64,000 nucleotides of DNA from IMG/VR virus record IMGVR_UViG_3300032244_000667, positions 3,839-67,838 of that record; one strand, written 5' to 3'. The DNA is from a virus. Taxonomy: Duplodnaviria > Caudoviricetes. Every line of letters starts with the position of its first letter. Position 1 is the stretch's first letter. Below, piece after piece: positions 28,854 to 59,477 of this stretch. The notes below the pieces were generated by a model. The model saw only the letters and a program-made list of their open reading frames with translations, was not told the origin of the DNA and did no database searches. The position numbers and the translations under genes were made by a program.

Positions 28854-28854
28854 G

Positions 28855-36002: not shown

Positions 36003-36011
36003 GTTGAAAGC
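36003..36011 (+). promoter_or_regulatory. Putative late promoter element GTTGAAAGC
   Basis: Exact motif 30 nt upstream of ATG 36033. Confidence 0.8.
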
Positions 36012-36032: not shown

Positions 36033-36590
36033 ATGACCGATACCGCCTCTGTCCCATACGGCTGGACCTCTCCTGACCCGGACACAATCGCCTACGACTT
36101 TGGCGAAGCGAGATTCGGTAGGGCCCCCAATGACATCCCGGCCAACGATACCGGTACAGATGGGAAGAGCCAGGAAGACGAATACCATAGCGAATCCGTT
36201 CCCGCTGACAGCGATCGGGGTCCGGCCAAGGTAACGGCCGGAACCGGTAGTTATGGCGGCACCGAAGAGTACAAGCCGGAACGCGACTCAAAGGACACCG
36301 GGGACACAGGCTCAATCGACCTCCCTATCGGCCATGCAGTTATCGAGAACGGTATTGTGCAGGGGAGAAATTACTACCTGGTTTGGGACGTAAAAACCGA
36401 AAAGTTTTACGGGGTCATCCCCAACTACAAAGAGGGCAAGGAGTTCAGATCCCGGATGAAACCCCATCGAACTGACGTTCTGGGTGATGTTTACCAAGTC
36501 CTATCTGCTTCACTCCCCGACGACCTCTCCGGGCAACTCATGAAGAGGTTCCCTGAAACCGCCGCCCTTACCAACGTCTACGACCGATAA
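36033..36590 (+). CDS. Hypothetical late protein with N-terminal VPYGW tag
   Basis: 185 aa, acidic disordered N-half; late motif upstream. Confidence 0.65.
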   Translation: MTDTASVPYGWTSPDPDTIAYDFGEARFGRAPNDIPANDTGTDGKSQEDEYHSESVPADSDRGPAKVTAGTGSYGGTEEYKPERDSKDTGDTGSIDLPIGHAVIENGIVQGRNYYLVWDVKTEKFYGVIPNYKEGKEFRSRMKPHRTDVLGDVYQVLSASLPDDLSGQLMKRFPETAALTNVYDR

Positions 36591-36661
36591 GGACATCTTA
36601 ACCCCCACCCCACTACGGATCAAAATCCCCTATACTAGACTCCTACCTCACCCCTCCTCCC

Positions 36662-37672
36662 ATGTCGTCCCGATCACTGCTATCGCACCCGCCAATGGTC
36701 TACAAGAAGGCGGGAGGATTTGAGTACCCAGAATTTTTTGAATACTACCGTAAGGCGGTAGCGTCGGTTTGGCGCCCGGAAGAGGTGGCTATGGGGGCAG
36801 ATGTTACGGACTGGCAGCAAAACCTCACCGAAAGTGAGAAGCAGTTGATCGCTGGTGTGTTGAGGGGTTTCACTATTATGGAGATGGGCATCTCGGAGTA
36901 CTGGGGTGATGTGGTATGCCGGAAGTTCCCCAAACCCGAGATTTTGTCTATGGCCCGGGCGTTTAGCTTTTTCGAGCAGATCCACGCTCAGGCCTACAAC
37001 CACCTCTCCGATACCCTGGGGATCAACGAATCCGAAGCTTTCCTTTCCGATCCAGCCGCACAACAAAAGGTTGAGAAATTCTTCACTGAATGTAGCTCGG
37101 AGAAAGTATCATTGGCGGTGTTCAGCGGGGCTGGGGAGGGGGTAAGCCTGTTCGCGTCATTCGCACTACTGCTGGCGTTCAACAAAACTGGCCGGATGAA
37201 GGGATTGGCCCAGATTATCTCCTGGTCGGTTAGGGACGAACAAAATCACAGTGATGGTGGTTGCGAACTCTTCAGGCGGTTAGTAGAAGAGACCGGTATT
37301 GCTGACGAAGAGATTAAGGAAATTGGTGAAGGATTCAATACCGTAATCGAGAACGAATTCAGTTTCCTCGAGAATATTTTCGACAAGATTGATAACTCGA
37401 AGATCCCCATTCTCCTAGAAGACCTCAAAGCCTATATTAAACTCCGGGCCAATAATCGCTATAGCCGGCTTGACCTAGACCTATCCATCCCCATGAGCGA
37501 CCAGGAAAGAATTTCGGCGGCCAACATCTCTTCTTGGTTCGATCCGATGGTAAGGGGCCAAACCAACTCCGATGTCTTCTCCCAGGCAAAAGACGGATCT
37601 GTGTATGTAGCTAAACCCTCCCAAGATTGGATGTCAGTCGATTTATCCTCTCTGGACCTGGCCCTAGCATAA
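36662..37672 (+). CDS. nrdB: Ribonucleotide reductase class Ia beta subunit
   Basis: WRPEEV, EQIHAQAY and DEQNH di-iron ExxH ligands, EGVSLFASF. Confidence 0.95.
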   Translation: MSSRSLLSHPPMVYKKAGGFEYPEFFEYYRKAVASVWRPEEVAMGADVTDWQQNLTESEKQLIAGVLRGFTIMEMGISEYWGDVVCRKFPKPEILSMARAFSFFEQIHAQAYNHLSDTLGINESEAFLSDPAAQQKVEKFFTECSSEKVSLAVFSGAGEGVSLFASFALLLAFNKTGRMKGLAQIISWSVRDEQNHSDGGCELFRRLVEETGIADEEIKEIGEGFNTVIENEFSFLENIFDKIDNSKIPILLEDLKAYIKLRANNRYSRLDLDLSIPMSDQERISAANISSWFDPMVRGQTNSDVFSQAKDGSVYVAKPSQDWMSVDLSSLDLALA

Positions 37673-37683
37673 CCCTATCCACC

Positions 37684-37848
37684 ATGTACCCGTACCCTAA
37701 ACCGTATCTCCAAGAACCTAACGGCCCCTGGATTGTACAAACAGGGCGCGGAACACGAACCTTTAACGATCCTGAGCTCGCCTGGAGCGCCTACTACTTC
37801 TCCAAACTGCAATACGAAAAAGACCATGAAAACGATCAAGCAAGTTGA
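37684..37848 (+). CDS. Small hypothetical protein
   Basis: MYPYPKPYLQEPNGPW..., CCACCATG start context typical of this genome. Confidence 0.5.
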   Translation: MYPYPKPYLQEPNGPWIVQTGRGTRTFNDPELAWSAYYFSKLQYEKDHENDQAS

Positions 37849-37999
37849 TAAAGACACCCGGTACATGTACCGGGAGCACGGCACCGTTTGTCTCGTGACC
37901 GAGCCGGGCCGGTCGGATCGTCTCCTCGAGCTAGCCCACCAGCGCCGCGTCAACCAGGAACGGTACGTCCATTCGCCCCTCGACTCCTGGGATATCTGA
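37826..37999 (+). CDS. Small hypothetical protein
   Basis: MKTIKQVDKDTRYMY...; stop overlaps the next ATG (TGATG). Confidence 0.5.
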   Translation: MKTIKQVDKDTRYMYREHGTVCLVTEPGRSDRLLELAHQRRVNQERYVHSPLDSWDI

Positions 38000-38481
38000 T
38001 GGCCATGGATATCAACATTAATGTGCCGGATGGTTGGGGGGTCAACGACACCGAATCGTTTGAGGAGGTGCCCGACCTCGACCCCGCTGATGAGAAATCA
38101 GAGGTGTGGAAGAGGTGGAAAGACTCCCCGTACCAGGTGAGCGATATGGGCAGGGTACGCCGTATCTATGAAAACGGCGAGACCAAGTATCGTAAGCCCA
38201 GATCGGATGATAGGGGCAAGTACCGTATCAACCTCACCTGGACACGTAACGGCACTCCGTATCGCGAAGAGCCCTTCCAGCACCAAATGGTTATGGCCGT
38301 CTTTGGGCCCGAAAAACCAGCCGGTGAGCACATCGTTGTGTGCCACAAGAAGCCAACAGGGCCCGATGGCAAGCCCGACAACCGCCTATCCAACCTGTAC
38401 TGGTGCGATCGAAGCCGGAACGTCGAAGACGCATGGGACGACGGTCTGATGGACTCGGGGGCCGAATGGAAAGATGAATAA
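37999..38481 (+). CDS. NUMOD4-HNH homing endonuclease with N-terminal VPDGW extension
   Basis: EVWKRW..YQVSDMGRVR (NUMOD4); HQMVMAVF..VCH..DNRLSNLYW...N (HNH); free-standing between nrdB and nrdA. Confidence 0.85.
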   Translation: MAMDININVPDGWGVNDTESFEEVPDLDPADEKSEVWKRWKDSPYQVSDMGRVRRIYENGETKYRKPRSDDRGKYRINLTWTRNGTPYREEPFQHQMVMAVFGPEKPAGEHIVVCHKKPTGPDGKPDNRLSNLYWCDRSRNVEDAWDDGLMDSGAEWKDE

Positions 38482-38600
38482 TGTGCCCGATGAGCTATTA
38501 GCTCAGCCCCCTTAACAGTAAGCCGCTAACCCGTTCCCGCCCATCTCGACTCTAATGTCGGGATAAATTTTTGCAACCTTGAAACTCTCGTTAACTCCCC

Positions 38601-43350: not shown

Positions 43351-43365
43351 AGACCCTAAGATCCC

Positions 43366-43881
43366 ATGATCAAATTTACCTTCAACATCCTGGACCGATA
43401 CGGCCTGGTAGAACTAGGATACACCCGCGTATCCAACTTCATTAACAAAAACCTCCTGAAGCGTAACACCCTCAACACCGAGCTAATCGCCGACGCCTTT
43501 ACAGCAGTTGATGGGTTCTGGCTCAAACACGGCCGCACCAAATGGTATAGTGAGTCGGATATCCGCGTCATTGTGGGTAGTGTAGTGGAATCACTGCGGG
43601 ACAACAACCTTAATTCGGGCGAAGTCCGGACCCTCGTCAAGTACATCACCGCGAAGTGGAAGCCCGAGATTGCTGAGTCCAAGGCTACCGCCGATACCAG
43701 CGTCCTGATCCCTTCACCCGTTGAAAACAATGCTCTGCGGGCGGTTGAAGTATGGAAGCAAATCCCCCAAGGACGCGTAAGCACTTCCGACTTCATCTCA
43801 TTGGGCTCTAAAGCCATCTCGGAAAACCTCCCCGACGCGTCAATTGTGAACGGCGTCTTCTCGGCCCTAGGCCTCAAGTAA
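43366..43881 (+). CDS. Hypothetical late protein
   Basis: 171 aa ORF with late motif upstream. Confidence 0.65.
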   Translation: MIKFTFNILDRYGLVELGYTRVSNFINKNLLKRNTLNTELIADAFTAVDGFWLKHGRTKWYSESDIRVIVGSVVESLRDNNLNSGEVRTLVKYITAKWKPEIAESKATADTSVLIPSPVENNALRAVEVWKQIPQGRVSTSDFISLGSKAISENLPDASIVNGVFSALGLK

Positions 43882-43893
43882 TTCGCAACTACC

Positions 43894-44334
43894 ATGAACG
43901 ACAACAGTTTTGAAAAGCCGAAGGATTGGGGTATCGCCCCGACCACCAGTTGGGTTTCCGGTACCCCTATTGGCGAGGTCCGGATGCCCGAACTGGGTGA
44001 TCCTGGAGCTCATGAGGATGCCTCCGAGCGGGTATCGTTTGGGGATGACGAAAAGCCGGCTGGTACCCCTTCCCTGTGGCAGGGCAAAATGGTCAAGCAG
44101 TGCCCGGCTGGAACCTCGTCTCAGGGTGGTGTGTGCATGCCGGACCCCAAGTCCGAGGCTACGGCTGAGACAAAATCCAAGGTATTGAACCGGCAGTTTG
44201 ATCGCGAGGCGGTCAAGGGTGGTGATAAGGGTCCTTCGGCTGACTCGTTCAAACGGGAGATGCCCAAAGCACCCGAAGTAGATCCTCAGATCCGCCGGAT
44301 CACCAAAGAGGGCTATAAGGGGAGGAACAAGTGA
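43894..44334 (+). CDS. Hypothetical late protein, disordered and charged
   Basis: 146 aa; ACCATG start; KQCPAGT..GGVC motif. Confidence 0.6.
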   Translation: MNDNSFEKPKDWGIAPTTSWVSGTPIGEVRMPELGDPGAHEDASERVSFGDDEKPAGTPSLWQGKMVKQCPAGTSSQGGVCMPDPKSEATAETKSKVLNRQFDREAVKGGDKGPSADSFKREMPKAPEVDPQIRRITKEGYKGRNK

Positions 44335-44561
44335 TCGAGAAGATCCAGAAGCCAATTCGGTTCGATAAGGACGTAGAGGTGTTGGTTGTGGCAAGGGATG
44401 GAGAGAAATTTTTCGTATCTGATTCCGACCCGAGTCTTGACCTGTCGCTCGAGGACATGAAAATCCGCCCGCTGCTCGAGTGGGCGATGATCACGAATTA
44501 CCCGATCCGGAAATTTGTCAAAGCACAACGCGTTCTGAGCGCCCGGTATTTTGGTGTATAA
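44331..44561 (+). CDS. Small hypothetical protein
   Basis: 76 aa, GTGA overlap with the previous ORF. Confidence 0.55.
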   Translation: MIEKIQKPIRFDKDVEVLVVARDGEKFFVSDSDPSLDLSLEDMKIRPLLEWAMITNYPIRKFVKAQRVLSARYFGV

Positions 44562-44581
44562 GCCCCAACATTCTATGGTTT

Positions 44582-44592
44582 TGTGGTATAGT
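44582..44592 (+). promoter_or_regulatory. Putative extended -10 promoter TGTGGTATAGT
   Basis: Intergenic, about 20 nt before ATG 44613. Confidence 0.55.
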
Positions 44593-44612
44593 ACTGATTA
44601 CCCTCAAGAAAT

Positions 44613-45395
44613 ATGACTACTTACTATACTTACTACTCCTACGAAGAGTTCGGACGAGGCTACATTGGATATCGAAAGTGTCCTGATGACAAAACCCCAG
44701 AAACCGATCCCTATTTGGGGTCTTATTCAGATAATACCTTTAAACCAACTAATAAAATTATTCTAACTGTTCATCACTCTGTAGATGAAGCATTACTAGC
44801 TGAAATAAAAATACAAAGGCTTTACAAAGTAGTAGAGAATCCCCATTTTGCTAATAGAGCTTATCAGACTAGCACTGGATTTAGGTTTGCTGCTAGCGGT
44901 GTAAACCACCCAATGTATGGGAAAACCCAGAGTAAATCAGCGAGGGAAAAAGTATCTAAATTTCGGCAATCTATAGATTTTTCGGGTCCCAACAACTCAT
45001 TTTTTGGCAAAACTCACTCGAAAGAAACTCGTAAAAGGATTTCTGAATCCCTGCTATCTTTGGAGCTAAAGGGGGGAAAAAATCCGATGTACGGGAAAAA
45101 ATTTTCTGAGGAACACAAGAGAAAATTATCAGAAGCTAAACAGGGAGATAAGAATCCGTGGAAAGGAAAAAATTTGCCCGAGGAGCACAGGAAAAAGATT
45201 TCACAGTCTTTGTTGGGCGAAAATCACCCTCGCTATATGCCCAGGAACTGGCATCACCCCGTCCACGGAACAGTCTTACAAAAATCTGCACCTGAGCTAG
45301 CAAGGCTATTTCCGGAACAAAACCTGATCCCTGGGAACTTGAGTTCGGTAGCTAAGGGTAACCAGTCTTACCACAGGGGATGGAAAGTATGTTAG
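44613..45395 (+). CDS. GIY-YIG-like (Seg-type) homing endonuclease with NUMOD3 repeats
   Basis: YYTYYSY..GRGYIGYR..YLGSY; repeats PMYGKTQS, SFFGKTHSKETRKRISE, PMYGKKFSEEHKRKLSE; AT-rich. Confidence 0.85.
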   Translation: MTTYYTYYSYEEFGRGYIGYRKCPDDKTPETDPYLGSYSDNTFKPTNKIILTVHHSVDEALLAEIKIQRLYKVVENPHFANRAYQTSTGFRFAASGVNHPMYGKTQSKSAREKVSKFRQSIDFSGPNNSFFGKTHSKETRKRISESLLSLELKGGKNPMYGKKFSEEHKRKLSEAKQGDKNPWKGKNLPEEHRKKISQSLLGENHPRYMPRNWHHPVHGTVLQKSAPELARLFPEQNLIPGNLSSVAKGNQSYHRGWKVC

Positions 45396-45428
45396 TATAT
45401 AGGAAGCAAAATACCCACCATCTTTCCA

Positions 45429-46637
45429 ATGACACCCTCGTTTAAAGAAGACTGGCTAAAAACGACATTAGACAATGAGCCCAACCTCCCCCTTTTGGTT
45501 ATCGACTACAGGGTCTACGCCCACCAAATTCACTCGTTTTCTGAAAGCTGTCTGGACATTGTGGGTGAAGATGAGGCTAAATTCCGTACTGTAGTCCGAG
45601 CACTTTGGGCTTACCGGCTAAATAGAGGTGTGGACTCTATACCCGAACGGGATTTTACCGCTATCGTGGTAGATGACTTTAAGGGGAACTTTCCTGGAAC
45701 TGAAATAACCGGGTATTGGCGCCACCTTGAATGTTCGAAGCTAGGACTACCTGAGTACAAAGGGGGGAGACCCAGTAAACCCTCAATGTTCCCTATAATT
45801 CTTGAAGAGGGCTACAAATACATAAAATGCTCAGGATCTACCTTTCATTTCTTTGACAAGGAATTTTACGAAGCTGACGATATTGCTGGAAAAATAGCAC
45901 GAATTCAACGGAACAATCCTGTTATTGACCGTTACATTTTATTGAGTACGTTGGATGGTGATTGGCAAGGTCTGGTATCCGACGAACACAAGACAGTTTG
46001 GTGTAATACGGGGCCTTGGCATTACAGAATCCGGACTGAAGCCGAGGTTTGTGATTACTACCTCCGGAAGGAAAAATTACACATCAAAACCTCCCGAGAG
46101 ACATACACGGTAAAAGTAGAAGTCGGAGACGCTGGAGACAATCTTTTGCCAGGGTCACCGTTACGTCTCTTCGACCTGTACGAAGAAGATCCGGTATGGG
46201 GCTGGACCGAGGACGAAGAAGCCACACTGAGGGACATTATCGCGGACACTAAGCCGTCCAACCGCCGCGACCACCTAACTAACGCGGGCCGGTTCCTTAA
46301 ATCAATCGGAATGTTCATGCCTGAAATCCCACCGCCAACACAGTACGAAATCGCCTCATTTGGTGAAAGAGCTGAACGTGAACGGCGTGAAGCAAGGCAC
46401 CCCGGGCTGCGCGGCCTTAACAAAAAGTATTGCATGGGGGTTGCCGACCCCGGCCGGTTCGACAAATGTGCTAAGGTTGTTACTGACGACAATGCTGCCC
46501 GGGAGAGGATTAAAGAGTTGGAAGAGCAGCGCAAGAACGATCCGGACAACCACAACCCTGGGCTGCTAAAGGCCCTGAAGGAGTCCCGCAAAGACTACAA
46601 AGCCTCCTTGATTCGTTTTTCGGAGGCTAATGGCTGA
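45429..46637 (+). CDS. 5'-3' exonuclease / flap endonuclease (T4 RNase H, T5 D15-like)
   Basis: LVID, YKGGR, EADDIAG, LDGDWQGL, GDAGDNL acidic motifs. Confidence 0.85.
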   Translation: MTPSFKEDWLKTTLDNEPNLPLLVIDYRVYAHQIHSFSESCLDIVGEDEAKFRTVVRALWAYRLNRGVDSIPERDFTAIVVDDFKGNFPGTEITGYWRHLECSKLGLPEYKGGRPSKPSMFPIILEEGYKYIKCSGSTFHFFDKEFYEADDIAGKIARIQRNNPVIDRYILLSTLDGDWQGLVSDEHKTVWCNTGPWHYRIRTEAEVCDYYLRKEKLHIKTSRETYTVKVEVGDAGDNLLPGSPLRLFDLYEEDPVWGWTEDEEATLRDIIADTKPSNRRDHLTNAGRFLKSIGMFMPEIPPPTQYEIASFGERAERERREARHPGLRGLNKKYCMGVADPGRFDKCAKVVTDDNAARERIKELEEQRKNDPDNHNPGLLKALKESRKDYKASLIRFSEANG

Positions 46638-48465: not shown

Positions 48466-48493
48466 TGGATAGCCGCTTGCTGAATGTGTTAGC

Positions 48494-49540
48494 ATGGATC
48501 TGGGCGGGATACGCCCTGACCATGGTGAGTATTTTTACCTACGTCTCCCTGAACCAACTGTGACCGCCACCATCTCGATCGACTCCGAAAGCTGGGACCA
48601 CAAGCCCAGCGCGACGCTCCAGTACCGTAATGAGAAGGACAAGTATGGGAATCCGAAGACGGAGGTGCGGGTGTTAGGTGCCAGGCTGGGGACTGACATT
48701 GAAACCCTGACCCCCAAACAGCTATCCCGGTGTATTGTTAGGGGCCAAACTTGGTCGCCGTTTGTGTTCAACGTCTGTCCGGATTGGAAGAGACGCCGGA
48801 GGCAGGAGGGACTATTTGCTAGTTGCCAGGTACTCGGGGTGGATTACGATGCGGGCGACAGCATCGAAGAGATAGTCACCACCGCCGAACAGCTCGGGAT
48901 CCGGTTCAACATCCTACACCACTCCTTCTCCAGCACACCGGAGCACCCTAAGCTCCGTGGGGTCATCTTTTTGGAGGAGGAGGTCACCGACCTCGAGACC
49001 GCGAAACTGCTAGCCACGGGCCTAGCCTACTCGTTAGGGGGAGACCGGGCTTGCGTGGACACGGCCAGGTTGTATTTCGGCTCCAGGCCCGACTCGATCG
49101 TCCATCTCGACAATGAGGTCTTGACAAGTCTGGACACACTACGGGGGCTTGCGGAGGCGTCTGACGCTGGACGCTATGTCATCACCCGCACCGCCAACGT
49201 CAAGGATCATGATCCGGAGTGGGGAACTCTGCAGGATCAGAGGGTGTTGTGGTCGAAACTGACTCCGGGCAAACGCGAGTTCGTTAAGCGGAAGCTACTC
49301 GGGATTTTGCGGGAAATAGAATCTTTTGACGGGTCGGATGGGACGAGCCGGTACGAGTGCGTGTGGAAGCGGACGAGCCGGATTGCGAGGATGCCAGAAA
49401 CCGTCGGCAATGTCATTTATGATTGGGTACTAGAACGCATTGGTAACAACCCTTACTTTGCGGATTGGGATAAAGACGCTAGCGATATTGTTCGGAACGC
49501 CATCGCATGGAGTCATGACCACGCCGAACCCCCGGTGTAG
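48494..49540 (+). CDS. Primase-polymerase (AEP-like) domain protein
   Basis: GVDYDAG (DxD), HHSFSSTPEHPKLRGVI, DRACVDTARLYFG. Confidence 0.75.
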   Translation: MDLGGIRPDHGEYFYLRLPEPTVTATISIDSESWDHKPSATLQYRNEKDKYGNPKTEVRVLGARLGTDIETLTPKQLSRCIVRGQTWSPFVFNVCPDWKRRRRQEGLFASCQVLGVDYDAGDSIEEIVTTAEQLGIRFNILHHSFSSTPEHPKLRGVIFLEEEVTDLETAKLLATGLAYSLGGDRACVDTARLYFGSRPDSIVHLDNEVLTSLDTLRGLAEASDAGRYVITRTANVKDHDPEWGTLQDQRVLWSKLTPGKREFVKRKLLGILREIESFDGSDGTSRYECVWKRTSRIARMPETVGNVIYDWVLERIGNNPYFADWDKDASDIVRNAIAWSHDHAEPPV

Positions 49541-49545
49541 CAGTC

Positions 49546-49554
49546 GTTGAAAGC
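49546..49554 (+). promoter_or_regulatory. Putative late promoter element GTTGAAAGC
   Basis: Exact motif 32 nt upstream of GTG 49578. Confidence 0.8.
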
Positions 49555-49577
49555 CATATATAAGACTATATGGTTCT

Positions 49578-51377
49578 GTGGCGGAATTTTCCCCAATTGC
49601 TGAGAATTTTACCCCCACCGGTCCTTCTCCCGAAGTGTCGTGGGAAAGCGCCTTAACGACCCCGATACCTGGATATGTCGATACCGATGTATCCGGATCC
49701 TCAGATTTTGATGTCTCTGATGATCCCTATGCGTTCCCTTCAGTAAGCGGGGCCGCCGTCTCCGTAGAGCAAAGACTAAGCAAGATCTCATTTGTCCAGG
49801 GCACATCGGGGCAGATGTCCTCGTCGATTGCGTATATTCGTTACTGGTCGCGCAAGGGTACACAGCAGAAGACGACCGTGAGCGATAATCCGGTAAACGG
49901 GGCGGTCTCGGATCCGCAGGACGCTCTGCTGAGCCAGATAAACACCCTGTCGTATGGTACCAATCTCGACCTGGCCCCCGCAATCCAGCCTACCTTACAA
50001 CCAGGGCCGGCACTAACCATACCAACCAACACAGCATATCAGAGTCGGCCCAGGCAGCCCGTGCCGACCCTAACCCCCGCCTCGGGGGCATCGTCCCTTA
50101 ATCGCCTCGGATCGATCTTCAGCGCCAATCCTGGGGGGACAACGGCCCCGGCCTGGGCCAACCCGTTCGCCTCTCAACCAGCCGCTCCGTCACCCGACAA
50201 CGCCGTCTGGCAGTTTCTATTCAACCCCGAAGAGCTACAGTTAAGTTCGGGTCCCGATTTCAACCGGGCCGAGACTTGGGGCGTGTCGGATCCCGCCAAT
50301 AGCGGCCAGCCACTGTCCTGGCGTAGCAACAAGAACCGCAAGCTGACGTTCGGCAAGGTGCTGTTGCACGGGTATACGTTTGGGCGGAGGGTCGATAGCC
50401 TTGAGAAGGGCTTGCAGCAGTTGTTTCTCGCCCGGGATGGGGAGAATGGGGCCGATGGTCCTCCGGTCCTCGAGTTCGTGTGGGGGCAGCGGGTGTTCGG
50501 TCCCTGCGTAATCCAGAATATCCAGGTCCGGGAGAAAGCGTGGGACAAAGGCCTTCTGGTCAATGCCGAAGTGTCATTCGACCTGGAGCAAGTCCCGGAG
50601 TGGACTATTAACGATGAGTTTGTTGATGTGTTGAGGCCGGGCCGGCAGTCAACAGTCAACGATCCGACCGTAGCGTCGGAGGGGTATAGGGATACTTCGG
50701 GTGGTGATGACAAAGAAGGAAAGGAAGAGCCAAAAGATGACAAAGGTGGTGGAGGGGGTAAAGCTGCCCCTGGTACTCAAGAATCCCAACTAAAACAAAG
50801 GCAGAAGGTGTGCAATGATGCTGAAAAATTATATAAAGACGGGTTTTTAGATCTTATAGATAAAATTGATAAAAATCAACTACCTAACTATGGTTATGGA
50901 GGTTCTTCAGATAAAACTCGGGAAAGAGTAAATGCCCTTTTAAATTCTTATATTGTCCTCCTAAAAAGAGTTCAAAATAGTATTCCGAGGTCGTCTAAGA
51001 TTAATAAACTTTACTCTGAGAGAGAGATGAAAGATGCTATTAATAACTATTATTTGGCAGACCCCAGTTCAACCCAAAAATTACAAGCTAAATCGAGGTC
51101 CCTTGTTCTGTTAAAACAGGCTTCTACCTCTGTGGGTAACATTGCCAAAAATTATTACACCTCCGAGACATGTAAAAAAACACCAGAAAATATAGAAAAA
51201 CTTAAGACCTCTCAGGTGTCCAAAAACGAAAGAACATATCTCTGTAACAACATAAAGGAAAATAAACCTTGCACTATATTAGGAGGGGATGTTAGGACAA
51301 ACCCTTGCAGTAAAAAGGTCTTCAGGTGTGTTGTAAAAGAAAACTCTACTGTCACTGTATACAGAGAGGTTAAATAG
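49578..51377 (+). CDS. Tail tube initiator/baseplate protein (eCIS tube-like core) with variable extensions
   Basis: FLFNPEELQL..PPVLEFVWG..GPCVIQNIQV..AEVSFDL core; Pro/Ser-rich N-part; AT-rich Cys-containing C-part; upstream of tape measure. Confidence 0.65.
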   Translation: MAEFSPIAENFTPTGPSPEVSWESALTTPIPGYVDTDVSGSSDFDVSDDPYAFPSVSGAAVSVEQRLSKISFVQGTSGQMSSSIAYIRYWSRKGTQQKTTVSDNPVNGAVSDPQDALLSQINTLSYGTNLDLAPAIQPTLQPGPALTIPTNTAYQSRPRQPVPTLTPASGASSLNRLGSIFSANPGGTTAPAWANPFASQPAAPSPDNAVWQFLFNPEELQLSSGPDFNRAETWGVSDPANSGQPLSWRSNKNRKLTFGKVLLHGYTFGRRVDSLEKGLQQLFLARDGENGADGPPVLEFVWGQRVFGPCVIQNIQVREKAWDKGLLVNAEVSFDLEQVPEWTINDEFVDVLRPGRQSTVNDPTVASEGYRDTSGGDDKEGKEEPKDDKGGGGGKAAPGTQESQLKQRQKVCNDAEKLYKDGFLDLIDKIDKNQLPNYGYGGSSDKTRERVNALLNSYIVLLKRVQNSIPRSSKINKLYSEREMKDAINNYYLADPSSTQKLQAKSRSLVLLKQASTSVGNIAKNYYTSETCKKTPENIEKLKTSQVSKNERTYLCNNIKENKPCTILGGDVRTNPCSKKVFRCVVKENSTVTVYREVK

Positions 51378-51382
51378 GTACT

Positions 51383-54300
51383 TTGGCAATCTCCAACCTC
51401 CAACTTAACGTAACGGCCAACACGGCCCGCGCCCTAGCCGACTTTAACAAGTTCTCGAGATCACTCGACAACAAATTCCTGGTCAGCGGCCTGAAGCTCG
51501 ATGTGGTCCGGGGTGCCCTCAGCCAGATCAATCGGGATTTCCAACGAGCTATCGGCGAGCAGGGACTAGCTAGTGCCTCGTCTCTGCGGGCTGCCCAGAA
51601 CCAAGCCGCGTTGTTGACCCAAACCTTTAAGGGTTTTGCGTCCGAGTCGGCTTTAGCCATTACCACCAACATCGGCACCGCGTTGAATCGGGTGGCGGTG
51701 ACGGCCGGCGGCACGATGAAGGACGTCCAGAAAACTTTGCTGGCCACCCCATTCATCTCGACAAAACTCAGCGAAGATGTCCGGCTCGGATTAAGCAAGG
51801 GCATACTGGACTTCCAGAAGAATATTCGCCGAGCCGGATTGGGAGAAAATTTCGGCGGTGTCGCTCAGCAATTCCTCATGGGGACCAAGACCACCATGCA
51901 AATGGTGCAGTCTGGCAATCCGCTCGAGATGTTCTTGGGGTCCGAGCTAATCAAACGTGGTGCGGGTGTAGGAGAGATTGCCGATCCTAAGGTGCGCAGC
52001 GAGCTCCTGGGGCTAGTCACTGGGGACAAGGAGCTATCCAATCAACTAGATATAGCGGCGAAACGGGCGGCTGGTTTCCGGATCATCCTGGAGGATATGA
52101 ACTCGACCCTGTTTAACCCGGAGTCCGGGGTATTCGGGTCGTTGAGAAAGGTTGTGGATTCGGCCGGGAAATCCACCACGATGTTTGATGAAGTCGGGAA
52201 GTTAGTCGAGCAGGTTTTTGGTGACAACGGTATGTTCGCCACCCTGGTCAAGTCTTTCCGGTCCGTGTTCGGCTCTGGAGACCCGATGCGGCCGTTCATC
52301 GACGGGGTCCAGTTCATGACCCGGATCTTTAAGTCGATTACCGATTACTTTAATACTCCGGGGTTCAAGGCCGTACTTGGGTACGTTAAGGATATTGTCG
52401 ACCGGGTCACTAGTGTGTTTACCGGCATATATCAGCAGATAAGGGGGGGTGGGTTTAACGCCAGTGAGATTACCCGCGCCATTGGGGAGATCGGAAACTC
52501 GATACGCGGGTATATCCGTCAATTCGGTGAAGCAATTCGGAACAAAGATGTATCGGGCGAGAGCGGATTTGCCGGGGATATTCTTGGGACTTTGGTTGAG
52601 GAGGTAGGACGCACCGCAGTCGTCCTTATCAAGGAGCTGTTGATGACTCTGGTGGACAAGGTTCCGGAGATTGCCACTGCCGTGTTGCCTGCCATCAACA
52701 AGGGCATCAATGCCATCCTGACTGAAGCTTTTGGTCAGACCGGTGCCGCTATGGTCAAGTTCATCGCAGGATTCGTCCCGGGACCGATTGGCATGATCGC
52801 TAGGGCCAGCGCGGTAGGCGATGTGACCGGAGGTGGTGGTAGTGTCGGTAGCATGTTGGCGATGGGTGCCGCTGCTGCACTGACACCAGGGTCAGTGATG
52901 GCCGCTAGGGGGTTTGCTAGCCGTCAGATGGCGGCGACTCGCCAACACCTAGGTGGATTTGGTCTACCGTTCCAATACGGATACGGGGTTGCTAGGGGAG
53001 CTGGAAACCTACTCGGTATGGGACTGCAGGGAGCTGGGAATCTATCCTCGAGACTCTTGGGTGGGTTAAGGTCCGGACCTGGAGCGACGGTCTCAGGTTA
53101 CCTGGGAGGAATAGGTCCCCTGCTTAGGGGGGGCGCTAGTGCAGTGCAGGGGCAATATTCCGCCCTATCCGGATTCGCGATGGGGCAAAGATCCCAGTTC
53201 ATGACAGGATTCAGACCTCCATTCCCCAATGTGGCAGTTGGTGCTGGGACTACACGTGCATACAACTTGGGACAGTTCGCCAAAAATTTCCCAGGTATGG
53301 TGAGCGGCTTACCGTCAAACATACTCAGCTCCCTGGGTGATGTGGCAACATCTGCTAGCAATGCTGTTGCTCCTATCGCAAGGGCGGGCAGGTCTTTGGG
53401 ATCAGGTGTTGCTACGTTCGGTAGAGCTGTGGCATCACAGGCAGTATATGCAGCTTTGGAGATCCAAAGGGCGGGTAGGATGTTCTCTCGCGGTCGTCCC
53501 ATGGTACAAGCCGGAATGGCGTTCAGGAGGTTTGCCCCAGGGGCTTTAGTTGGGGGTGGAGTGGTACTGGGCAGCCAACTCCTCGGAAACAGTATCGGTG
53601 GAGATGCTGGAAAACAGGTATCGGGTGTGGGGGCCATGTTGGGCGGGGGTATTTCAGGTGCAAGTACTGGTGCGATGATTGGGTCGGTGATTGCTCCGGG
53701 GGTGGGTACCGCCGTTGGTGCGGTGATAGGGGGGATTATAGGAGCTATAGCCCCGTTGATGGATAAGGGTGTCCGGGAGGGGGTGGTCAAATTTGTAACA
53801 AATATGGGAACTAGCTTAAACAACATACTTGAATATTTTACCAAAGGCACCCAAGAAAACTGGTCTAAAGCTATAGACTTCATGGGGTCTGCAGTAAAGT
53901 TTTTTGTCAACGGTCTGGTTGGCATGCTTAACGGTATTCTTACCGCCACACAGATCATCCCGCGCATGATAATGGGGATGGTAGAAGGTATATATCAAAA
54001 TTCATCGGCACTTAAACTAATACCGGGACTAGGGAGTTCGATCGGTGCGGCCAAATCAGTTGCATACTTTCAAGTCCCTTACATGTTTGCCGGCAAGGAT
54101 TATGCCGGTCCGGCCATGGCCCTCGAGGCCCGGATGAGTGGTCGCCGCCCGATGGTTGTTAACGATGGGGAGTTTGTCATCCCTCGCGACGGGTTCCCGA
54201 CACTGGCCGGTCTGGTAGGCGACAATCTCCGGAGTACCGGAGCCATGAACCACGGTACTTCCCAACCCGTCCAGGTAAACGTCACCCTAGCCATTACCAC

Positions 54301-54427
54301 CAACTCAGTTGTTGCCGATCCCAACGAACTTGCCAACGCCCTCCGCGACCCCGTGTACAAGATTATCGGCGAAGCATGGAATGAGGCGTACAACTCCACC
54401 CGGATCCACCGACCCAAAGTGAGCTAA
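51383..54427 (+). CDS. Tape measure protein
   Basis: 1014 aa Ala/Gly-rich helical protein with GAMIGSVIAPGVGTAVGAVIGG and MVVNDGEFVIP motifs. Confidence 0.85.
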   Translation: MAISNLQLNVTANTARALADFNKFSRSLDNKFLVSGLKLDVVRGALSQINRDFQRAIGEQGLASASSLRAAQNQAALLTQTFKGFASESALAITTNIGTALNRVAVTAGGTMKDVQKTLLATPFISTKLSEDVRLGLSKGILDFQKNIRRAGLGENFGGVAQQFLMGTKTTMQMVQSGNPLEMFLGSELIKRGAGVGEIADPKVRSELLGLVTGDKELSNQLDIAAKRAAGFRIILEDMNSTLFNPESGVFGSLRKVVDSAGKSTTMFDEVGKLVEQVFGDNGMFATLVKSFRSVFGSGDPMRPFIDGVQFMTRIFKSITDYFNTPGFKAVLGYVKDIVDRVTSVFTGIYQQIRGGGFNASEITRAIGEIGNSIRGYIRQFGEAIRNKDVSGESGFAGDILGTLVEEVGRTAVVLIKELLMTLVDKVPEIATAVLPAINKGINAILTEAFGQTGAAMVKFIAGFVPGPIGMIARASAVGDVTGGGGSVGSMLAMGAAAALTPGSVMAARGFASRQMAATRQHLGGFGLPFQYGYGVARGAGNLLGMGLQGAGNLSSRLLGGLRSGPGATVSGYLGGIGPLLRGGASAVQGQYSALSGFAMGQRSQFMTGFRPPFPNVAVGAGTTRAYNLGQFAKNFPGMVSGLPSNILSSLGDVATSASNAVAPIARAGRSLGSGVATFGRAVASQAVYAALEIQRAGRMFSRGRPMVQAGMAFRRFAPGALVGGGVVLGSQLLGNSIGGDAGKQVSGVGAMLGGGISGASTGAMIGSVIAPGVGTAVGAVIGGIIGAIAPLMDKGVREGVVKFVTNMGTSLNNILEYFTKGTQENWSKAIDFMGSAVKFFVNGLVGMLNGILTATQIIPRMIMGMVEGIYQNSSALKLIPGLGSSIGAAKSVAYFQVPYMFAGKDYAGPAMALEARMSGRRPMVVNDGEFVIPRDGFPTLAGLVGDNLRSTGAMNHGTSQPVQVNVTLAITTNSVVADPNELANALRDPVYKIIGEAWNEAYNSTRIHRPKVS

Positions 54428-54434
54428 CCACACC

Positions 54435-54977
54435 ATGGCCAACCTAGTCAACAGCATCCAAACCATCCCCAACCGTATCGATACGGCCGAACTGGCTCGG
54501 ATCAAAAATCAGTTCAGGTTGAGGGACCGTAGTAACTCCGATCTATCCGGATCGATACGGGCCGACCGTAGCAACCCGGTCCGGGTATTTGATACTCTGG
54601 CCACACCCGCCTCGCTGGAGTCCACCACCCTCCGGGGTCTATCGTACCCGCTCGAGCTCGATAACAATGGGGGTCTGAAAGTGGCGTACGGCATCGACCG
54701 CATCGCCCAGGCCATCCGCGAAGTGTTCGAGACCCGGATCGGTGAACGAGTAGCCAATCCGTTTATGGGTGTACGCGAGCTGTTGTTCGAAACTATCAGC
54801 GAGGATGCCGAAGCCCAGTCGATTAAACGCCAGCTACTATCGGCTATCCCTTACCTCCGTCCGGAAAACCTCTCCGTCTCGATGTCTATCGATGAGTCGG
54901 GCACATGTTACATCGTGTGCCGGTATGCCGTCGAAGGTGTCAGTGAGGTGCTGGTCAGGTATAACTTCAGCGCGTAG
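54435..54977 (+). CDS. Baseplate wedge gp25-like protein
   Basis: IAQAIREVFETRIGERVANPFMG..LLFE signature. Confidence 0.85.
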   Translation: MANLVNSIQTIPNRIDTAELARIKNQFRLRDRSNSDLSGSIRADRSNPVRVFDTLATPASLESTTLRGLSYPLELDNNGGLKVAYGIDRIAQAIREVFETRIGERVANPFMGVRELLFETISEDAEAQSIKRQLLSAIPYLRPENLSVSMSIDESGTCYIVCRYAVEGVSEVLVRYNFSA

Positions 54978-54986
54978 CCCAATCCC

Positions 54987-54995
54987 GTTGAAAGC
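54987..54995 (+). promoter_or_regulatory. Putative late promoter element GTTGAAAGC
   Basis: Exact motif; ATG 55001 begins at the conserved A six bases after it. Confidence 0.8.
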
Positions 54996-55000
54996 CCTAT

Positions 55001-55438
55001 ATGGGTAAGTCACTCTCCCGGCTTAAAGATTTCTCATCCTTTGGTCTCGACACCCAAGAGATGATCTTGTCTCAGCTTAGCGCGATCGACCTTGACCGTA
55101 TCGGTCCAAAGTCCATTGCGACTGTAGGTAAAAGCCTCATCAAGATTATCTCCCAGAGTCACCGATACCAGGAAGAATCTGACAACGACGAGGTCCGGGA
55201 GAATTGGCTAGCTGTTCGGGAGATGAGCCTGGATATCCTCGAATCCATCTTGGCGAGGTTCCAGGAGCTTAGTGACAAGGCCGAAATCGCCGAGTGGGAC
55301 AGGTCGGCCGTGCTCAGCCTCCTGGCCGACATTAGCAAGGTGTGTCATGATGAGCAGAAACGCACCGAGGATCAGATAAAGGCCGGGGCGGGCAAAGAGC
55401 TCAGCACCGAGCTGTTGAACGAAATCCTAGGAATTTAA
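55001..55438 (+). CDS. Helical late protein, possible terminase small subunit
   Basis: 145 aa, all-helical, C-terminal LSTELLNEIL; TerS assignment is speculative. Confidence 0.45.
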   Translation: MGKSLSRLKDFSSFGLDTQEMILSQLSAIDLDRIGPKSIATVGKSLIKIISQSHRYQEESDNDEVRENWLAVREMSLDILESILARFQELSDKAEIAEWDRSAVLSLLADISKVCHDEQKRTEDQIKAGAGKELSTELLNEILGI

Positions 55439-55442
55439 CACC

Positions 55443-55655
55443 ATGATGAACATCGATCAGGCGAGAGCCGCAGACCCGGTAGTGAAGATGGCCGATGCTG
55501 GTGGCATCTCGATCCTCGACCCCAAAAAGCCCCAAAAGCACAAGGAACGGGAGGATGTATCCGATGCTGGCGGTGTAACCGAGCCGGTGTTCCAAGCCGA
55601 GGAAAGCAATCTGAATATCGAGATTCCCCAGGGTTGGAAGGTTTCCGGGCGTTGA
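55443..55655 (+). CDS. Small late protein with C-terminal IEIPQGWKV tag
   Basis: 70 aa; ACCATG start; stop codon lies inside the next late motif. Confidence 0.6.
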   Translation: MMNIDQARAADPVVKMADAGGISILDPKKPQKHKEREDVSDAGGVTEPVFQAEESNLNIEIPQGWKVSGR

Positions 55656-55659
55656 AAGC
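55651..55659 (+). promoter_or_regulatory. Putative late promoter element GTTGAAAGC
   Basis: Exact motif 31 nt upstream of GTG 55682. Confidence 0.8.
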
Positions 55660-55681
55660 AATATAGATAGTAAGTACTGCT

Positions 55682-57517
55682 GTGGATTTCCAAGACCCGC
55701 CCAAATCAGAAAAAGTTGCTCGTAACCCGAACAACTTCAACATCCTGAAGGGTGGAAAGGTCGATCCGCGCTCCAAGCTGTATCAGAGGTCGGTTGCTGG
55801 ACGCGAACAGCTCAAGGATTACCTGAGCCGGCTGTCAAATAGCGGTGCGGATGAGGCCGATGTGTTCATGGCTGGCGTCAAGAGCTTGATGAATCGGGGT
55901 CATGGTTATGTCGGCGCGTATCTGGATAGTAAGAATCCGGGACGTAGATACGAAAAGAACCAGGCCATGGCCATCACCGACAAAGTGATGACTGATGAAG
56001 GGATTGGCGAACATCCTGGTGCTAGGTTGACCAAGCCGAAAGTAACAGACGAGGAGGGCAATATCGACAAAGAGGCCACTAAGGAGGCGAGGGACAAACG
56101 GAAAGAAGCTAATGCGGGGCGCGGATCAGGTCCCCAACAGGCTCCAGGTCCCTCGGCTAAACCGGTTGGTCAGCAACGCAAAGAGGGAAAGCGCGAGAGC
56201 ACGGGTCAAGCCCTAGAAGATAGCCGCCGGGAAGGTATAGGTGACGTAGCTAAAGGTCCGGCCTCGGAGTGGCAAAATACCCTCGAGAGTAGAATGAAGG
56301 GTGAGGCAAGCACCCAGGATGTGTTGTCCGCATTCCAGAAACAGTATCAGAGCCAGATTGGTGGTAAGAAAAAAGCCGCTCCTGGTGAAGGGGCTCCTGG
56401 TCCCAGCCAAGCTCCGGGCAGTGCAGCACAGCCCCCGGCCGAAGAGGCTGTTACCCCCGAAGAAGAAACGGAAGAGACCGGGAAACCCTCGGCTGACGAA
56501 GTTACCATCTCAAGTAAGTTTAAAGAACTGGTTGAGGGTAATATCAAGAGCAATTTGCCCTCAACTGACAAAAACGCACTTGAGGGTAGTATCCAAGAGG
56601 CTATAGAAATCCTTGAAGATGAGTATGATGTGGATCCAGAAGTTGCCAGAGCTGCGATATTTAGAAGGTTCAATAATAAGTTGATTGGTGGGAGAAAAAT
56701 TGTTTTCGATCCATCTTCTGCTCCCGAAAGGCCCGGTCAGAAAGAATCTGCACCCGAGCCGAAGGCTGCGGCCCCTACCGCTGCGCCGGAGGCTGAAACA
56801 CCATCCGCTGCTCCAGAAGCTAAAACTCCACAACCCGGACAGCAAGAGGCTGCGGCACCACAGGGCGGCGGTCAAGAGGCCCAGGCTCCGGCCTCTGCGG
56901 CACCGAAGAAACCCAAAGGTGGTCTCAATATCCCCAAACAACCTGCTCGCAGGGGCGGTGGTGGATTCACCCCCGAGATTGGTAAGCAGGCCATCGACAC
57001 CATCCGCCAAGCCGCATCTGAGGGCAAGAGCGTGGAGGAGATTGTCGAGCAATTCAATCAGGGCAACCTGTTCCCGGGAGGTCTAGTCACCGACACCGCC
57101 CAAACCAATCCGCTGGAGGGAGGTAGCACACCGGCAAGTCCGGCTTCCCCTAAAGCCCCCCAGACCCAGGAGGAGAGAGGTGGCAGCCTTCTTGACGAGC
57201 AAGGACAGGCTAAGGACTTCCGCAAGTCCGGTCCTCAACCAACAGGAGGTGGTGGTTCCAGACAGCTCCCTCTCCCACTGGGTAGAGATAATAGTGCCGC
57301 TAAGTTAAAGGGTAGAGCCGATGTGGAAAAGAGGCGCCTGGCGAAACAGGAAAAATCCCTCGGTAAGCCTAGTCCCCGTCCTCGCAAATCAGGGAAATCC
57401 CCAGTCCAGCCAGAGCTCTTTACAAAGTCCGGCAACCCGCGCCAATTCAATACGGGAGAGGGGGGTAACATGTCATACGACGAATTCTCCCAGTCCGTAC
57501 GCTCCATGATGCGGTAA
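55682..57517 (+). CDS. Large, largely disordered late protein (possible internal head protein)
   Basis: 611 aa rich in A/P/E/K/Q/G with AAPEA-type repeats; late motif upstream. Confidence 0.6.
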   Translation: MDFQDPPKSEKVARNPNNFNILKGGKVDPRSKLYQRSVAGREQLKDYLSRLSNSGADEADVFMAGVKSLMNRGHGYVGAYLDSKNPGRRYEKNQAMAITDKVMTDEGIGEHPGARLTKPKVTDEEGNIDKEATKEARDKRKEANAGRGSGPQQAPGPSAKPVGQQRKEGKRESTGQALEDSRREGIGDVAKGPASEWQNTLESRMKGEASTQDVLSAFQKQYQSQIGGKKKAAPGEGAPGPSQAPGSAAQPPAEEAVTPEEETEETGKPSADEVTISSKFKELVEGNIKSNLPSTDKNALEGSIQEAIEILEDEYDVDPEVARAAIFRRFNNKLIGGRKIVFDPSSAPERPGQKESAPEPKAAAPTAAPEAETPSAAPEAKTPQPGQQEAAAPQGGGQEAQAPASAAPKKPKGGLNIPKQPARRGGGGFTPEIGKQAIDTIRQAASEGKSVEEIVEQFNQGNLFPGGLVTDTAQTNPLEGGSTPASPASPKAPQTQEERGGSLLDEQGQAKDFRKSGPQPTGGGGSRQLPLPLGRDNSAAKLKGRADVEKRRLAKQEKSLGKPSPRPRKSGKSPVQPELFTKSGNPRQFNTGEGGNMSYDEFSQSVRSMMR

Positions 57518-57519
57518 AC

Positions 57520-57530
57520 TGTGTTATGAT
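57520..57530 (+). promoter_or_regulatory. Putative extended -10 promoter TGTGTTATGAT
   Basis: Fills the 22-nt gap before ATG 57540. Confidence 0.55.
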
Positions 57531-57539
57531 CGGGGTACT

Positions 57540-58442
57540 ATGAATACAGTTGTTTACCAGTGGTTGAGAAAAGAAGGAACCCCATACTATATTGGAATTG
57601 GTAATCCCAGGAGGCCTTACAGAGGCAGAAGACTCTGTGGTTGCCCTCCTCCGAGGGATAGGATCGTTATCCTGCATGAGCATCTTGAGTGGGAGGAAGC
57701 TTGTAGAATTGAAAAAGAACTTATTGCTTTTTACGGAAGGAGGGACCTCGGGACAGGTATCTTACGTAACCTGACTGATGGAGGAGAAGGTATTGTTAAC
57801 CTTTCTGAAAAGTCCAAGGGAAAAATATCCAAAGCTAACTCAGGAAAGAATCACCCTTTCTTTGGTAAAGAACGTCCTGAGGAAACTAAAAAGAAGATAT
57901 CAGAAGCAAACTTGGGTAAAAAACGTACTGAAGAGGCCAAAAAGAAAATGTCAGAAGCTCAATCCGGCAAAAAACTTTCAGAAGAGACAAAATTAAAATT
58001 ATCAAAAGCTAGTCTTGGCAGAAAACATACAAAAGAGGCTATAGCAAAATTTTCCGGAAAAAATCACCCGATGTATGGCAAGAAACATACAAAGGAGTCG
58101 AAGGAAAAAATGTCTAAAGCTAATTCTGGAGAGAATAATTCCAGGTTCGGTAAAAATCATTCAGAGGAGACTAAAAAGAAGATATCGGATATGCACAAAG
58201 GTAAAAAATTATCGGAAGAGACTAAGAAAAAGCTATCAGAAGCCGGGATAGGAGAAAAAAGCCATAATCGTATCCCAAGAGACTGGTGGCACCCGGTTCA
58301 CGGAACGGTTTTACAAAAATCAGCGTCTGAGTTGGCAAGATTATTTCCAGAGCAAAAGCTCAATAGGGGCCATTTGGCAGAAGTTGCTAGAGGGGGAGGA
58401 AAAAGGTTTCAACACAAAGGCTGGATATCGTTGAAAGCTTAG
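57540..58442 (+). CDS. GIY-YIG-like homing endonuclease with NUMOD3 repeats
   Basis: VVYQW..TPYYIGIG..R..EEACRIEKELI..LRNLTDGGEG; many HSEETKKKIS repeats; AT-rich. Confidence 0.85.
   Translation: MNTVVYQWLRKEGTPYYIGIGNPRRPYRGRRLCGCPPPRDRIVILHEHLEWEEACRIEKELIAFYGRRDLGTGILRNLTDGGEGIVNLSEKSKGKISKANSGKNHPFFGKERPEETKKKISEANLGKKRTEEAKKKMSEAQSGKKLSEETKLKLSKASLGRKHTKEAIAKFSGKNHPMYGKKHTKESKEKMSKANSGENNSRFGKNHSEETKKKISDMHKGKKLSEETKKKLSEAGIGEKSHNRIPRDWWHPVHGTVLQKSASELARLFPEQKLNRGHLAEVARGGGKRFQHKGWISLKA
58430..58438 (+). promoter_or_regulatory. Putative late promoter element GTTGAAAGC (inside the endonuclease 3' end)
   Basis: Exact motif 31 nt upstream of ATG 58461. Confidence 0.8.
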
Positions 58443-58460
58443 TATACAGGATTGACCGAC

Positions 58461-59177
58461 ATGCCTCTCAAAGAAGGTACCTCCGAGGAGGTCATTTCAC
58501 ACAACATATCGAAACTGATGGGGGAAGGGACTCCGCAAAAACAGGCCATCGCCATGGCCCTACGCAGTGCAGGCAAATCCAAGTATGATGGATCAGAAGG
58601 CAAGGACCACGATGATGATGGAAATATCGACTCGGATGACTGGATGATGGCCCGGGACAAAGCCATTAAAAAAGCGATGTTGGGAGACGACGAGGACAAA
58701 AAAGGCTCGTATTGTGAGGAGGAAGACGATGGCGAGGGACAAATGGCACAGGGGGACCTCAGGTCGGCCGCCCGCAACGCTCTGCTGATCGACTCGTTGA
58801 TCACCGAGGACAGTGAAATTCCGGAATGGGTGTCGAATAAACTCGCGATTGCCTCGGATTATTTCAATTCCGTCGCCCAGTACATGCAACATACAGGAGA
58901 AGATCGCGATGTGATGTTTGCTGAGGAGATGCAGGGACCGGACCCGTGTTGGAAGGGTTATGAGATGGTCGGTCAGAAAAAGAAGAACGGTAAAGATGTT
59001 CCGAATTGTGTCAAGAAAACGTCCGATTCGGCTGAGTGCGACAAGTCCGAGTACAGTGAGATCCGTGTACCGACCGGCTGGAATGTCTCCCAGTCCGGCG
59101 GAGTAATCGGTCCGGCTATCACTCGTGCCCAGCACCTGTCCGGTAACCAGGACATGCAGGCCCAGACCGATGAATGA
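58461..59177 (+). CDS. Modular head/internal virion protein
   Basis: Short modules seen in cyanophage head proteins: PLKEG..ISHNI..QKQAIAMAL; DHDDDG..ARDKAIKKAM; EGQMA..IPEWVSNKL..DY; PCWKGYEMVG.KKKNGKDVPNCV. Confidence 0.65.
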   Translation: MPLKEGTSEEVISHNISKLMGEGTPQKQAIAMALRSAGKSKYDGSEGKDHDDDGNIDSDDWMMARDKAIKKAMLGDDEDKKGSYCEEEDDGEGQMAQGDLRSAARNALLIDSLITEDSEIPEWVSNKLAIASDYFNSVAQYMQHTGEDRDVMFAEEMQGPDPCWKGYEMVGQKKKNGKDVPNCVKKTSDSAECDKSEYSEIRVPTGWNVSQSGGVIGPAITRAQHLSGNQDMQAQTDE

Positions 59178-59463
59178 CGGGCCCGTTATTCCAGACGGGT
59201 GGTCGGTAGATCCCGAGTACGCCGAGAAAAAATACAGCAAGACCGTTACTGATCCGGACACTGGCCGCGAGCGAAAGGTGCGGTACGGGGCGAAGGGGTA
59301 CACCATCGCGCCCGGCACCAGCCGAGGCGATAGCTACTGTGCTCGGTCGGAAGGACAACGCGAGGATTACGGATACAACTGTAGCGGCTCCGATCGCAAC
59401 ACCCCATTGTGTCTTAGCCGCTCGAAATGGCGGTGTTCAGGGACCAATTCCCGTAAAGCATAA
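59170..59463 (+). CDS. Small Cys-rich virion protein with N-terminal IPDGW tag
   Basis: MNDGPVIPDGWSVDPEYAE then KVRYG..SYCARS..C..C..WRC module; ATG overlaps the upstream stop. Confidence 0.65.
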   Translation: MNDGPVIPDGWSVDPEYAEKKYSKTVTDPDTGRERKVRYGAKGYTIAPGTSRGDSYCARSEGQREDYGYNCSGSDRNTPLCLSRSKWRCSGTNSRKA

Positions 59464-59468
59464 TTCCG

Positions 59469-59477
59469 TGCTATACT
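59469..59477 (+). promoter_or_regulatory. Putative extended -10 promoter TGCTATACT
   Basis: In the short gap before 59489. Confidence 0.5.

Follow-up and report, generated by a model that had tools for sequence, protein, structure and literature searches.

Why should a handful of proteins that have little else in common carry the same short peptide at one of their ends? This question is raised by a 64,000-nucleotide stretch of viral DNA (bases 3839-67838 of the linear 67.8-kb IMG/VR record IMGVR_UViG_3300032244_000667, which is estimated to be ~42% complete), referred to below, at its full length, as the window. An initial annotation of the window described a terminal peptide of the form [I/V]-P-x-G-W, lying beside an aromatic-x-Glu element, in five proteins and proposed that it is a portable tag for loading cargo into virions, removed by a cut after the Glu. 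The analysis presented here indicates that the motif is almost certainly real, selected, terminal and portable. Its likeliest role is that of an address label for incorporation into the virus particle, a reading that can be believed and doubted in about equal measure. The five tagged proteins, together with a sixth that carries a weaker tag, are encoded at the following positions.

36033..36590, plus strand: tagged protein 1, 185 amino acids (aa); N-terminal P-Y-G-W followed by Y-x-F-G-E, tag at 36051-36107
37999..38481, plus strand: NUMOD4-HNH endonuclease, 160 aa (PHROG 59/959, Pfam PF07463), located between nrdB and nrdA; N-terminal tag and acidic linker (38011-38067) ahead of the NUMOD4 motif
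43894..44334, plus strand: weaker sixth tagged protein, 146 aa; N-terminal [F/Y]-x-E-K-P-K-[D/G]-W at 43906-43935
55443..55655, plus strand: small protein, 70 aa; C-terminal tag at 55590-55643, 5 residues before the stop codon
58452..59177, plus strand: modular "beads-on-a-string" protein, likely start ATG at 58461; tag Y-S-E-I-R-V-P-T-G-W-N-V at 59052-59087, followed by a 29-aa tail
59170..59463, plus strand: small basic Cys-containing protein, 97 aa; N-terminal tag at 59185-59226

The initial annotation had placed the tag in the five main proteins at these places and termini and had remarked that the codons differ, all of which was borne out. Because the Pro and Gly codons vary between tag sites, the tag is conserved at the protein level, and a DNA-level repeat is ruled out as the source of the peptide likeness. 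The tag starts at most 10 residues from the initiator Met in three of the proteins and ends 5 residues from the stop codon in one protein and 29 in another. In the curated proteome of the window, which was the base for the motif statistics (54 proteins, 22,120 aa), P-x-G-W was found 6 times versus 1.4 expected, and [I/V]-P-x-G-W 5 times versus 0.18 expected from composition (Poisson 1e-6). Residue shuffles gave a mean of 0.14 copies of the longer motif and a maximum of 2. The motif was picked after the data had been viewed; these Poisson and shuffle figures are thus post hoc and suggestive, and weight is put on replication in relatives. All five copies of [I/V]-P-x-G-W are terminal, P-x-G-W is present once per tagged protein, and the only other in-frame P-x-G-W of the window lies within the terminase domain. 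The Gly is occasionally replaced by Asp (in 43894 of the window and in one homologue of 59170), a swap that would be expected at a tight turn.

Judged from its sequence, the window is a fragment of a relative of the cyanomyovirus S-TIM5 (TIM5-like). The lineage was recognised through the primase protein, which shares 50% identity with its counterpart in Cyanophage S-TIM5 (Aurunvirus), and the gene order tracks S-TIM5 from ~85 to 155 kb. A near-identity DNA search of a phage collection with window positions 44000-60000 returned no match. The genomes used for comparison were the complete S-TIM5, the phage S-TIM54 and two IMG/VR relatives, G001 (127 kb), whose orthologue of 55001 is ~97% identical, and G002 (123 kb), which is ~70% identical.

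Replication in these relatives is extensive. In S-TIM5 (~50% identity) each of the five syntenic orthologues carries the tag at the end at which the window protein has it, N-terminal in gp094 (36033), gp089 (37999, HNH) and gp065 (59170) and C-terminal in gp067 (55443) and gp066 (58452). No terminal copy was found in S-TIM5 outside these five orthologues; its other matches are inside DNA polymerase, a MoxR-type ATPase and a small unrelated open reading frame (ORF). The same pattern is present in G001, G002, S-TIM54 and four more IMG/VR contigs, and conservation at the same termini was checked in S-TIM5, S-TIM54, G001 and G002. The weak site of 43894, P-K-D-W in the window, reads P-K-G-W at the same place in G002, and 43894 is for this reason counted as a sixth member. 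Per residue, [I/V/L]-P-x-G-W is ~7-fold rarer in a control lineage than in the tagged lineage. S-TIM54 also contains a 122-aa ORF (OP053362.1, ~166,600-166,970; L149) with L-P-D-G-W-G-D-Y-E ~15 residues from its C-terminus, which may be an extra tagged protein or a motif internal to a domain.

The second part of the element travels with the first. An aromatic-small-Glu sequence is kept in the orthologues of all five families, in agreement with the earlier claim that it accompanies the tag, and is located after N-terminal tags and before C-terminal tags. This mirror layout is equally compatible with removal of the tag by a cut after the Glu and with a single two-part docking surface.

The individual families show how tightly the tag is held and how loosely it is attached. 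No family was found in Pfam or PHROGs for 36033, 43894, 55443 or 59170. Across 27 sequences of the 36033 family P8, Y9, G10, W11, Y21, G24 and E25 are invariant, with freely variable residues ahead of the Pro. In its AlphaFold2 (AF2) model residues 1-95, tag included, are of low confidence or predicted to be disordered and residues 100-175 form a beta-sheet/helix domain, for which the best VIA-align Z of 6.6 (an AP2/WGR-like sheet plus helix) lies inside the noise range stated for the tool, so that the domain is given no fold. The tag of the HNH endonuclease is kept in G001, G002, S-TIM5 gp089 and S-TIM54, with a linker of varying length. In the 55443 family P-x-G-W is kept in 25 of 27 database homologues, and a P-V-F element and an M-M-N-type N-terminus are present in all 27 except one 5'-truncated entry. 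The tag of this 55443/gp067 family ends 3-5 residues before the stop codon and therefore is not part of a domain. Among 120 homologues of 59170, 76 are tagged, and in 53 of these 76 the Trp is followed, at a distance of exactly 5 residues, by [F/Y]-x-E. The AF2 model of 59170 gives the tag (residues 1-20) a predicted local distance difference test (pLDDT) score of ~56 and the adjoining beta-hairpin/helix domain 70-84; a Foldseek search of this model against the PDB gave no match at E <= 0.001. As AF2 assigns low confidence to tag regions outside the folded domains, the tags would behave as linear motifs on flexible linkers.

The proteins had also been described as otherwise unrelated, which holds for most pairs outside the tag and fails for one. 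The C-terminal tail of 58452 (59052-59177, comprising the tag and G-P-x-I...H-L-x-G-x-Q-D) is homologous along ~37 aa to the module with which S-TIM5 gp065 begins, and is likewise homologous to the N-terminal module of many 59170 homologues. The start of 59170 overlaps the stop codon of 58452 by 8 nucleotides (nt), in ATGAATGA. From sequence comparison the tag module appears to have moved across the boundary between these two genes. The modules of 58452 are widespread among unrelated phages.

Most of the tagged genes also share a promoter-like context. The window has 14 copies of a nine-base motif, GTTGAAAGC, each with a TATA-like element after it, and they typically stand 30-35 nt upstream of start codons.

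36003..36011, plus strand: promoter-like motif copy, 30 nt upstream of 36033
43335, 54987, 55651 and 58430: promoter-like copies near tagged genes (GTTGAAAGC and TATA-like element)
3231, 13510, 28855/28853 and 49546: examples of further GTTGAAAGC copies, ~30 nt upstream of structural-gene starts

The motif precedes tail-fibre, baseplate and other structural genes and is inferred from these downstream genes to be a late promoter. It heads the units 36033, 43366-43894, 55001-55443 and 58452-59170 and also precedes 55682. Four of the five tagged genes, plus 43894, are in units headed by the motif, and the earlier statement that four of five lie under or downstream of a late promoter was confirmed for it. 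The gene 43894 is second in the unit headed by the copy at 43335 and has its own copy in G002, where 31 copies are found, including at orthologues of tagged genes; the HNH gene 37999 has no copy of its own. S-TIM5 has only 2 copies, so its equivalent promoter motif must differ. Two further genes stand between the tagged genes 55443 and 58452. One is a 611-aa ORF (55682-57517) with its own promoter motif, for which no PHROG or Pfam match and no S-TIM5 counterpart were found, and the other is a GIY-YIG gene (57540-58442).

Circumstantial links from the tagged proteins to the virus particle are provided by S-TIM5. Two tagged orthologues, gp094 and gp067, have the GenBank label "virion structural protein and packaging", the basis of the annotation being unverified. 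By our own count from annotation tables, S-TIM5 has 51 coding sequences (CDS) of at most 70 aa, and gp094 and gp067 are the only two of these that are labelled virion; the chance that both small virion-labelled CDS are tagged orthologues is ~1 in 1,275. The first 14 residues of the 55443/gp067 family (window 55443-55484) match the N-terminus of the major capsid protein (MCP), with differing codons, and this capsid protein N-terminus is conserved in S-TIM5, G001 and G002.

L002:42611-42652, minus strand: S-TIM5 site of the match to the MCP-like N-terminus

The capsid protein of TIM5-like phages is lambda gpE-like and without a delta domain. Its gene is split in two relatives, the first 8 codons forming a mini-exon 0.6-0.9 kb upstream (G001 ~26660-28803 and G002 ~28839-29749, minus strand; L042, L049), and in G001 a further ~1 kb insertion with a GIY-YIG-like ORF is located between residues 194 and 195. 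These insertions in the capsid genes of G001 and G002 are probably introns with a homing endonuclease.

The C-terminal domain of 59170 is also found in an uncultured lineage (IMG/VR contigs of 40-70 kb; L055-L134, e.g. L063:7761-10297 and L115:4787-10336) whose protease is of the DUF2213 type and whose capsid protein is PF09950. In place of P-x-G-W, the domain there carries an N-terminal M-x-L-T-P-x-x-[V/I/L]-R-x-D, further copies of which lie inside proteins, between one module and the next. In 23 of 23 loci of at least 15 kb, one to four adjacent genes start with this M-x-L-T-P tag, and every one of them is placed between the portal and prohead protease genes. Among the payloads are a DnaJ-domain protein, a DUF5872 protein, a 1,517-aa protein and Cys-rich modules. 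A targeting signal would lead one to expect just this, one cargo in a head-module position under a terminal tag peculiar to another lineage. A related module occurs in the T4-like Synechococcus phage S-CAM7 (L135:3863-4981), where a 372-aa protein between terS and terL strings together a C-W-x-G-Y...V-P-N-C-V module and a 59170-like C-terminal module. This protein was considered as a bridge to the T4 system and rejected, since it lacks the P-x-G-W tag and shows no clear T4-type capsid targeting sequence (CTS).

Taken together, these observations suggest that the element is a lineage-specific, two-part short linear motif of TIM5-like cyanomyoviruses. The first part would be a hairpin-like unit consisting of a hydrophobic residue, P-x-G-W and then x-[V/I], and the second an aromatic-small-Glu unit a few residues away. 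In five or six small proteins made alongside the structural genes, the motif would sit at one end, N- or C-terminal, on a flexible and often acidic linker. Its likeliest role would be to dock these proteins on a single partner that they have in common, the candidates being the scaffold/protease core and the inside of the capsid; once docked, they would become internal components of the particle and might be ejected from it. The aromatic-small-Glu unit may contribute to docking or may be cut during maturation; a cut after the Glu is conceivable though unsupported, and on the whole doubtful. A wider reading is offered tentatively, with rather more doubt than belief. TIM5-like phages might load diverse cargo by means of a two-part terminal "zip code", while other lineages put their own tags on the same shuffled modules. 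On this reading a nuclease, a basic Cys-rich protein and a mimic of the capsid protein N-arm would be among the cargo. The earlier proposal of a portable tag for virion loading is thereby upheld in part, since the terminal element is selected and portable, two S-TIM5 orthologues are annotated as virion proteins and 59170 cargo is found in the head module of another lineage.

Several observations weigh against incorporation into the particle, and others against the way in which it had been proposed to work. Three of the tagged S-TIM5 orthologues, gp089 (HNH), gp066 and gp065, are not annotated as virion proteins, and a homing-type HNH endonuclease would be an odd cargo. The tagged genes adjoin tail, baseplate or lysis genes or sit in the ribonucleotide reductase (RNR) operon, outside the head module. 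The 59170 gene is missing from the 97%-identical G001 (~122040-122210), in which the 58452 orthologue is followed directly by a membrane-protein gene. The genes 58452 and 59170 are not fully independent examples of the tag, contrary to the initial model, because of the homology of the 58452 tail to the gp065 N-terminal module and the 8-nt overlap. Any link of the window's own proteins to packaging is indirect. The simple order of tag, cut and payload is contradicted by the 43894 family, in which aromatic-x-Glu stands before the N-terminal tag, so that cleavage at that site would not remove the tag, and by the 21 of 76 tagged 59170 homologues that do not have aromatic-x-Glu. The suggested analogy with T4 gp21 is also not upheld. 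The prohead protease of TIM5-like phages is of the Mu gpI type, fused to an acidic scaffold-like region (PF10123 Mu-like_Pro, phrog_976), and is not gp21-like; for this reason cleavage after Glu is not inferable from family membership.

The tag could instead be a docking motif for a hub outside the virion, such as a host chaperone, protease or polymerase subunit, or a regulatory or replication protein of the phage, with the tagged proteins acting in the infected cell. This is a serious rival, albeit an unlikely one. A disordered acidic linker that ends in a short Trp-anchored motif is typical of hub binding generally, and the tag has this layout; two tagged genes are in the RNR operon, one of them encoding the HNH endonuclease, and the three S-TIM5 orthologues without a virion annotation would be as expected. 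Such a hub does not account well for the tie between tagged genes and the promoter motif of structural genes, for the virion annotation of gp094 and gp067, for the MCP-like N-terminus of 55443 or for homologous cargo in the head module of the other lineage. Another explanation holds that the element is mainly a recognition or cleavage signal for the prohead protease or another protease, which separates the modules of small polyproteins and has no role in targeting. The aromatic-x-Glu sites that also occur between the modules of 58452, and are kept in G001 and G002, would suit such a signal, as would the internal copies of the alternative tag in the other lineage. Several aromatic-x-Glu sites are likewise conserved in the protease-scaffold protein itself, including one where the protease domain ends, but their number in this very acidic scaffold is close to the composition expectation (own estimate) and is uninformative. 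A cleavage signal is quite improbable given that P-x-G-W is present once per protein and only at termini, and that trimming 5-20 terminal residues would be pointless unless those residues had acted beforehand.

The remaining alternative is that P-x-G-W is a common turn, as at the start of WW domains or in tail collars, which recurs by chance or local structure and has no shared function. The motif does occur inside ordinary domains of these genomes (terminase, MoxR-type ATPase, DNA polymerase and tail fibre) and was defined post hoc. Conservation largely refutes this explanation, leaving it extremely improbable: in all five families the tag is kept at the corresponding termini of orthologues that are ~50% diverged, its columns are invariant, the aromatic-small-Glu element accompanies it, it is 3-5 residues from the stop codon in one family and its per-residue rate is ~7-fold above that of the control lineage.

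On the wider reading, if true, terminal address tags coded by lineage would amount to a general system for packaging ejected proteins. A tag that works at either terminus would give a handle on the proteins that marine cyanophages deliver into Synechococcus with their DNA, as well as a simple route for loading foreign cargo into cyanophage particles. It would also supply a rule for spotting ejected proteins in metagenomes, which is to look for shuffled modules with terminal tags peculiar to their lineage. The address-tag idea is directly testable, as cultures of both S-TIM5 and its host WH 8102 exist. The ecology paper on TIM5-like phages makes no mention of motifs, virions or promoters. To our knowledge, capsid or virion targeting signals are experimentally well defined in very few phages, mainly T4.

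WW domains and tail collars also contain the four-residue P-x-G-W turn and its anchoring Trp. The WW domain is a three-stranded fold of ~35 residues with a second conserved Trp and a Pro after its L-P-x-G-W-E start. It was rejected as an explanation of the tag, for which there was no Pfam match; the gp067 family ends 3-5 residues after the Trp, and the tag has low pLDDT and is outside the folded domain. The nearest known counterparts of the tag are the T4 CTS and the cargo-loading peptides of encapsulins. The T4 CTS, found in the internal proteins IPI-III and Alt, is comparable in being a short terminal peptide that is common to unrelated small proteins and stands beside an x-Glu site. In both systems the genes are scattered outside the head module, and the portability of both is inferred. 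The cyanophage tag differs in being found at either terminus, with two copies C-terminal, and in being an unrelated Trp-anchored P-x-G-W turn. The candidate cyanophage site is aromatic-small-Glu whereas that of T4 is Leu/Ile-x-Glu, and the cyanophage protease is Mu gpI-like rather than gp21 (S77). In phiKZ-like phages and SPN3US, many head-internal or ejected proteins are reported to carry removable terminal segments that are cut after Glu by the prohead protease (PMC5694885, PMC10052503). These propeptides are long and N-terminal, have no common short consensus and are cut by a gp21-like protease, unlike the cyanophage tag.

Encapsulin cargo-loading peptides dock cargo inside an HK97-fold shell, and cleavage is not required. 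They resemble the cyanophage tag as short N- or C-terminal peptides on flexible linkers that dock diverse cargo. They differ in their consensus and in belonging to cellular nanocompartments rather than viruses, and the shell protein is only one candidate partner for the cyanophage tag. What sets the cyanophage tag apart from the T4 CTS and the encapsulin peptides is its sequence, its use of either protein end and the type of protease involved.

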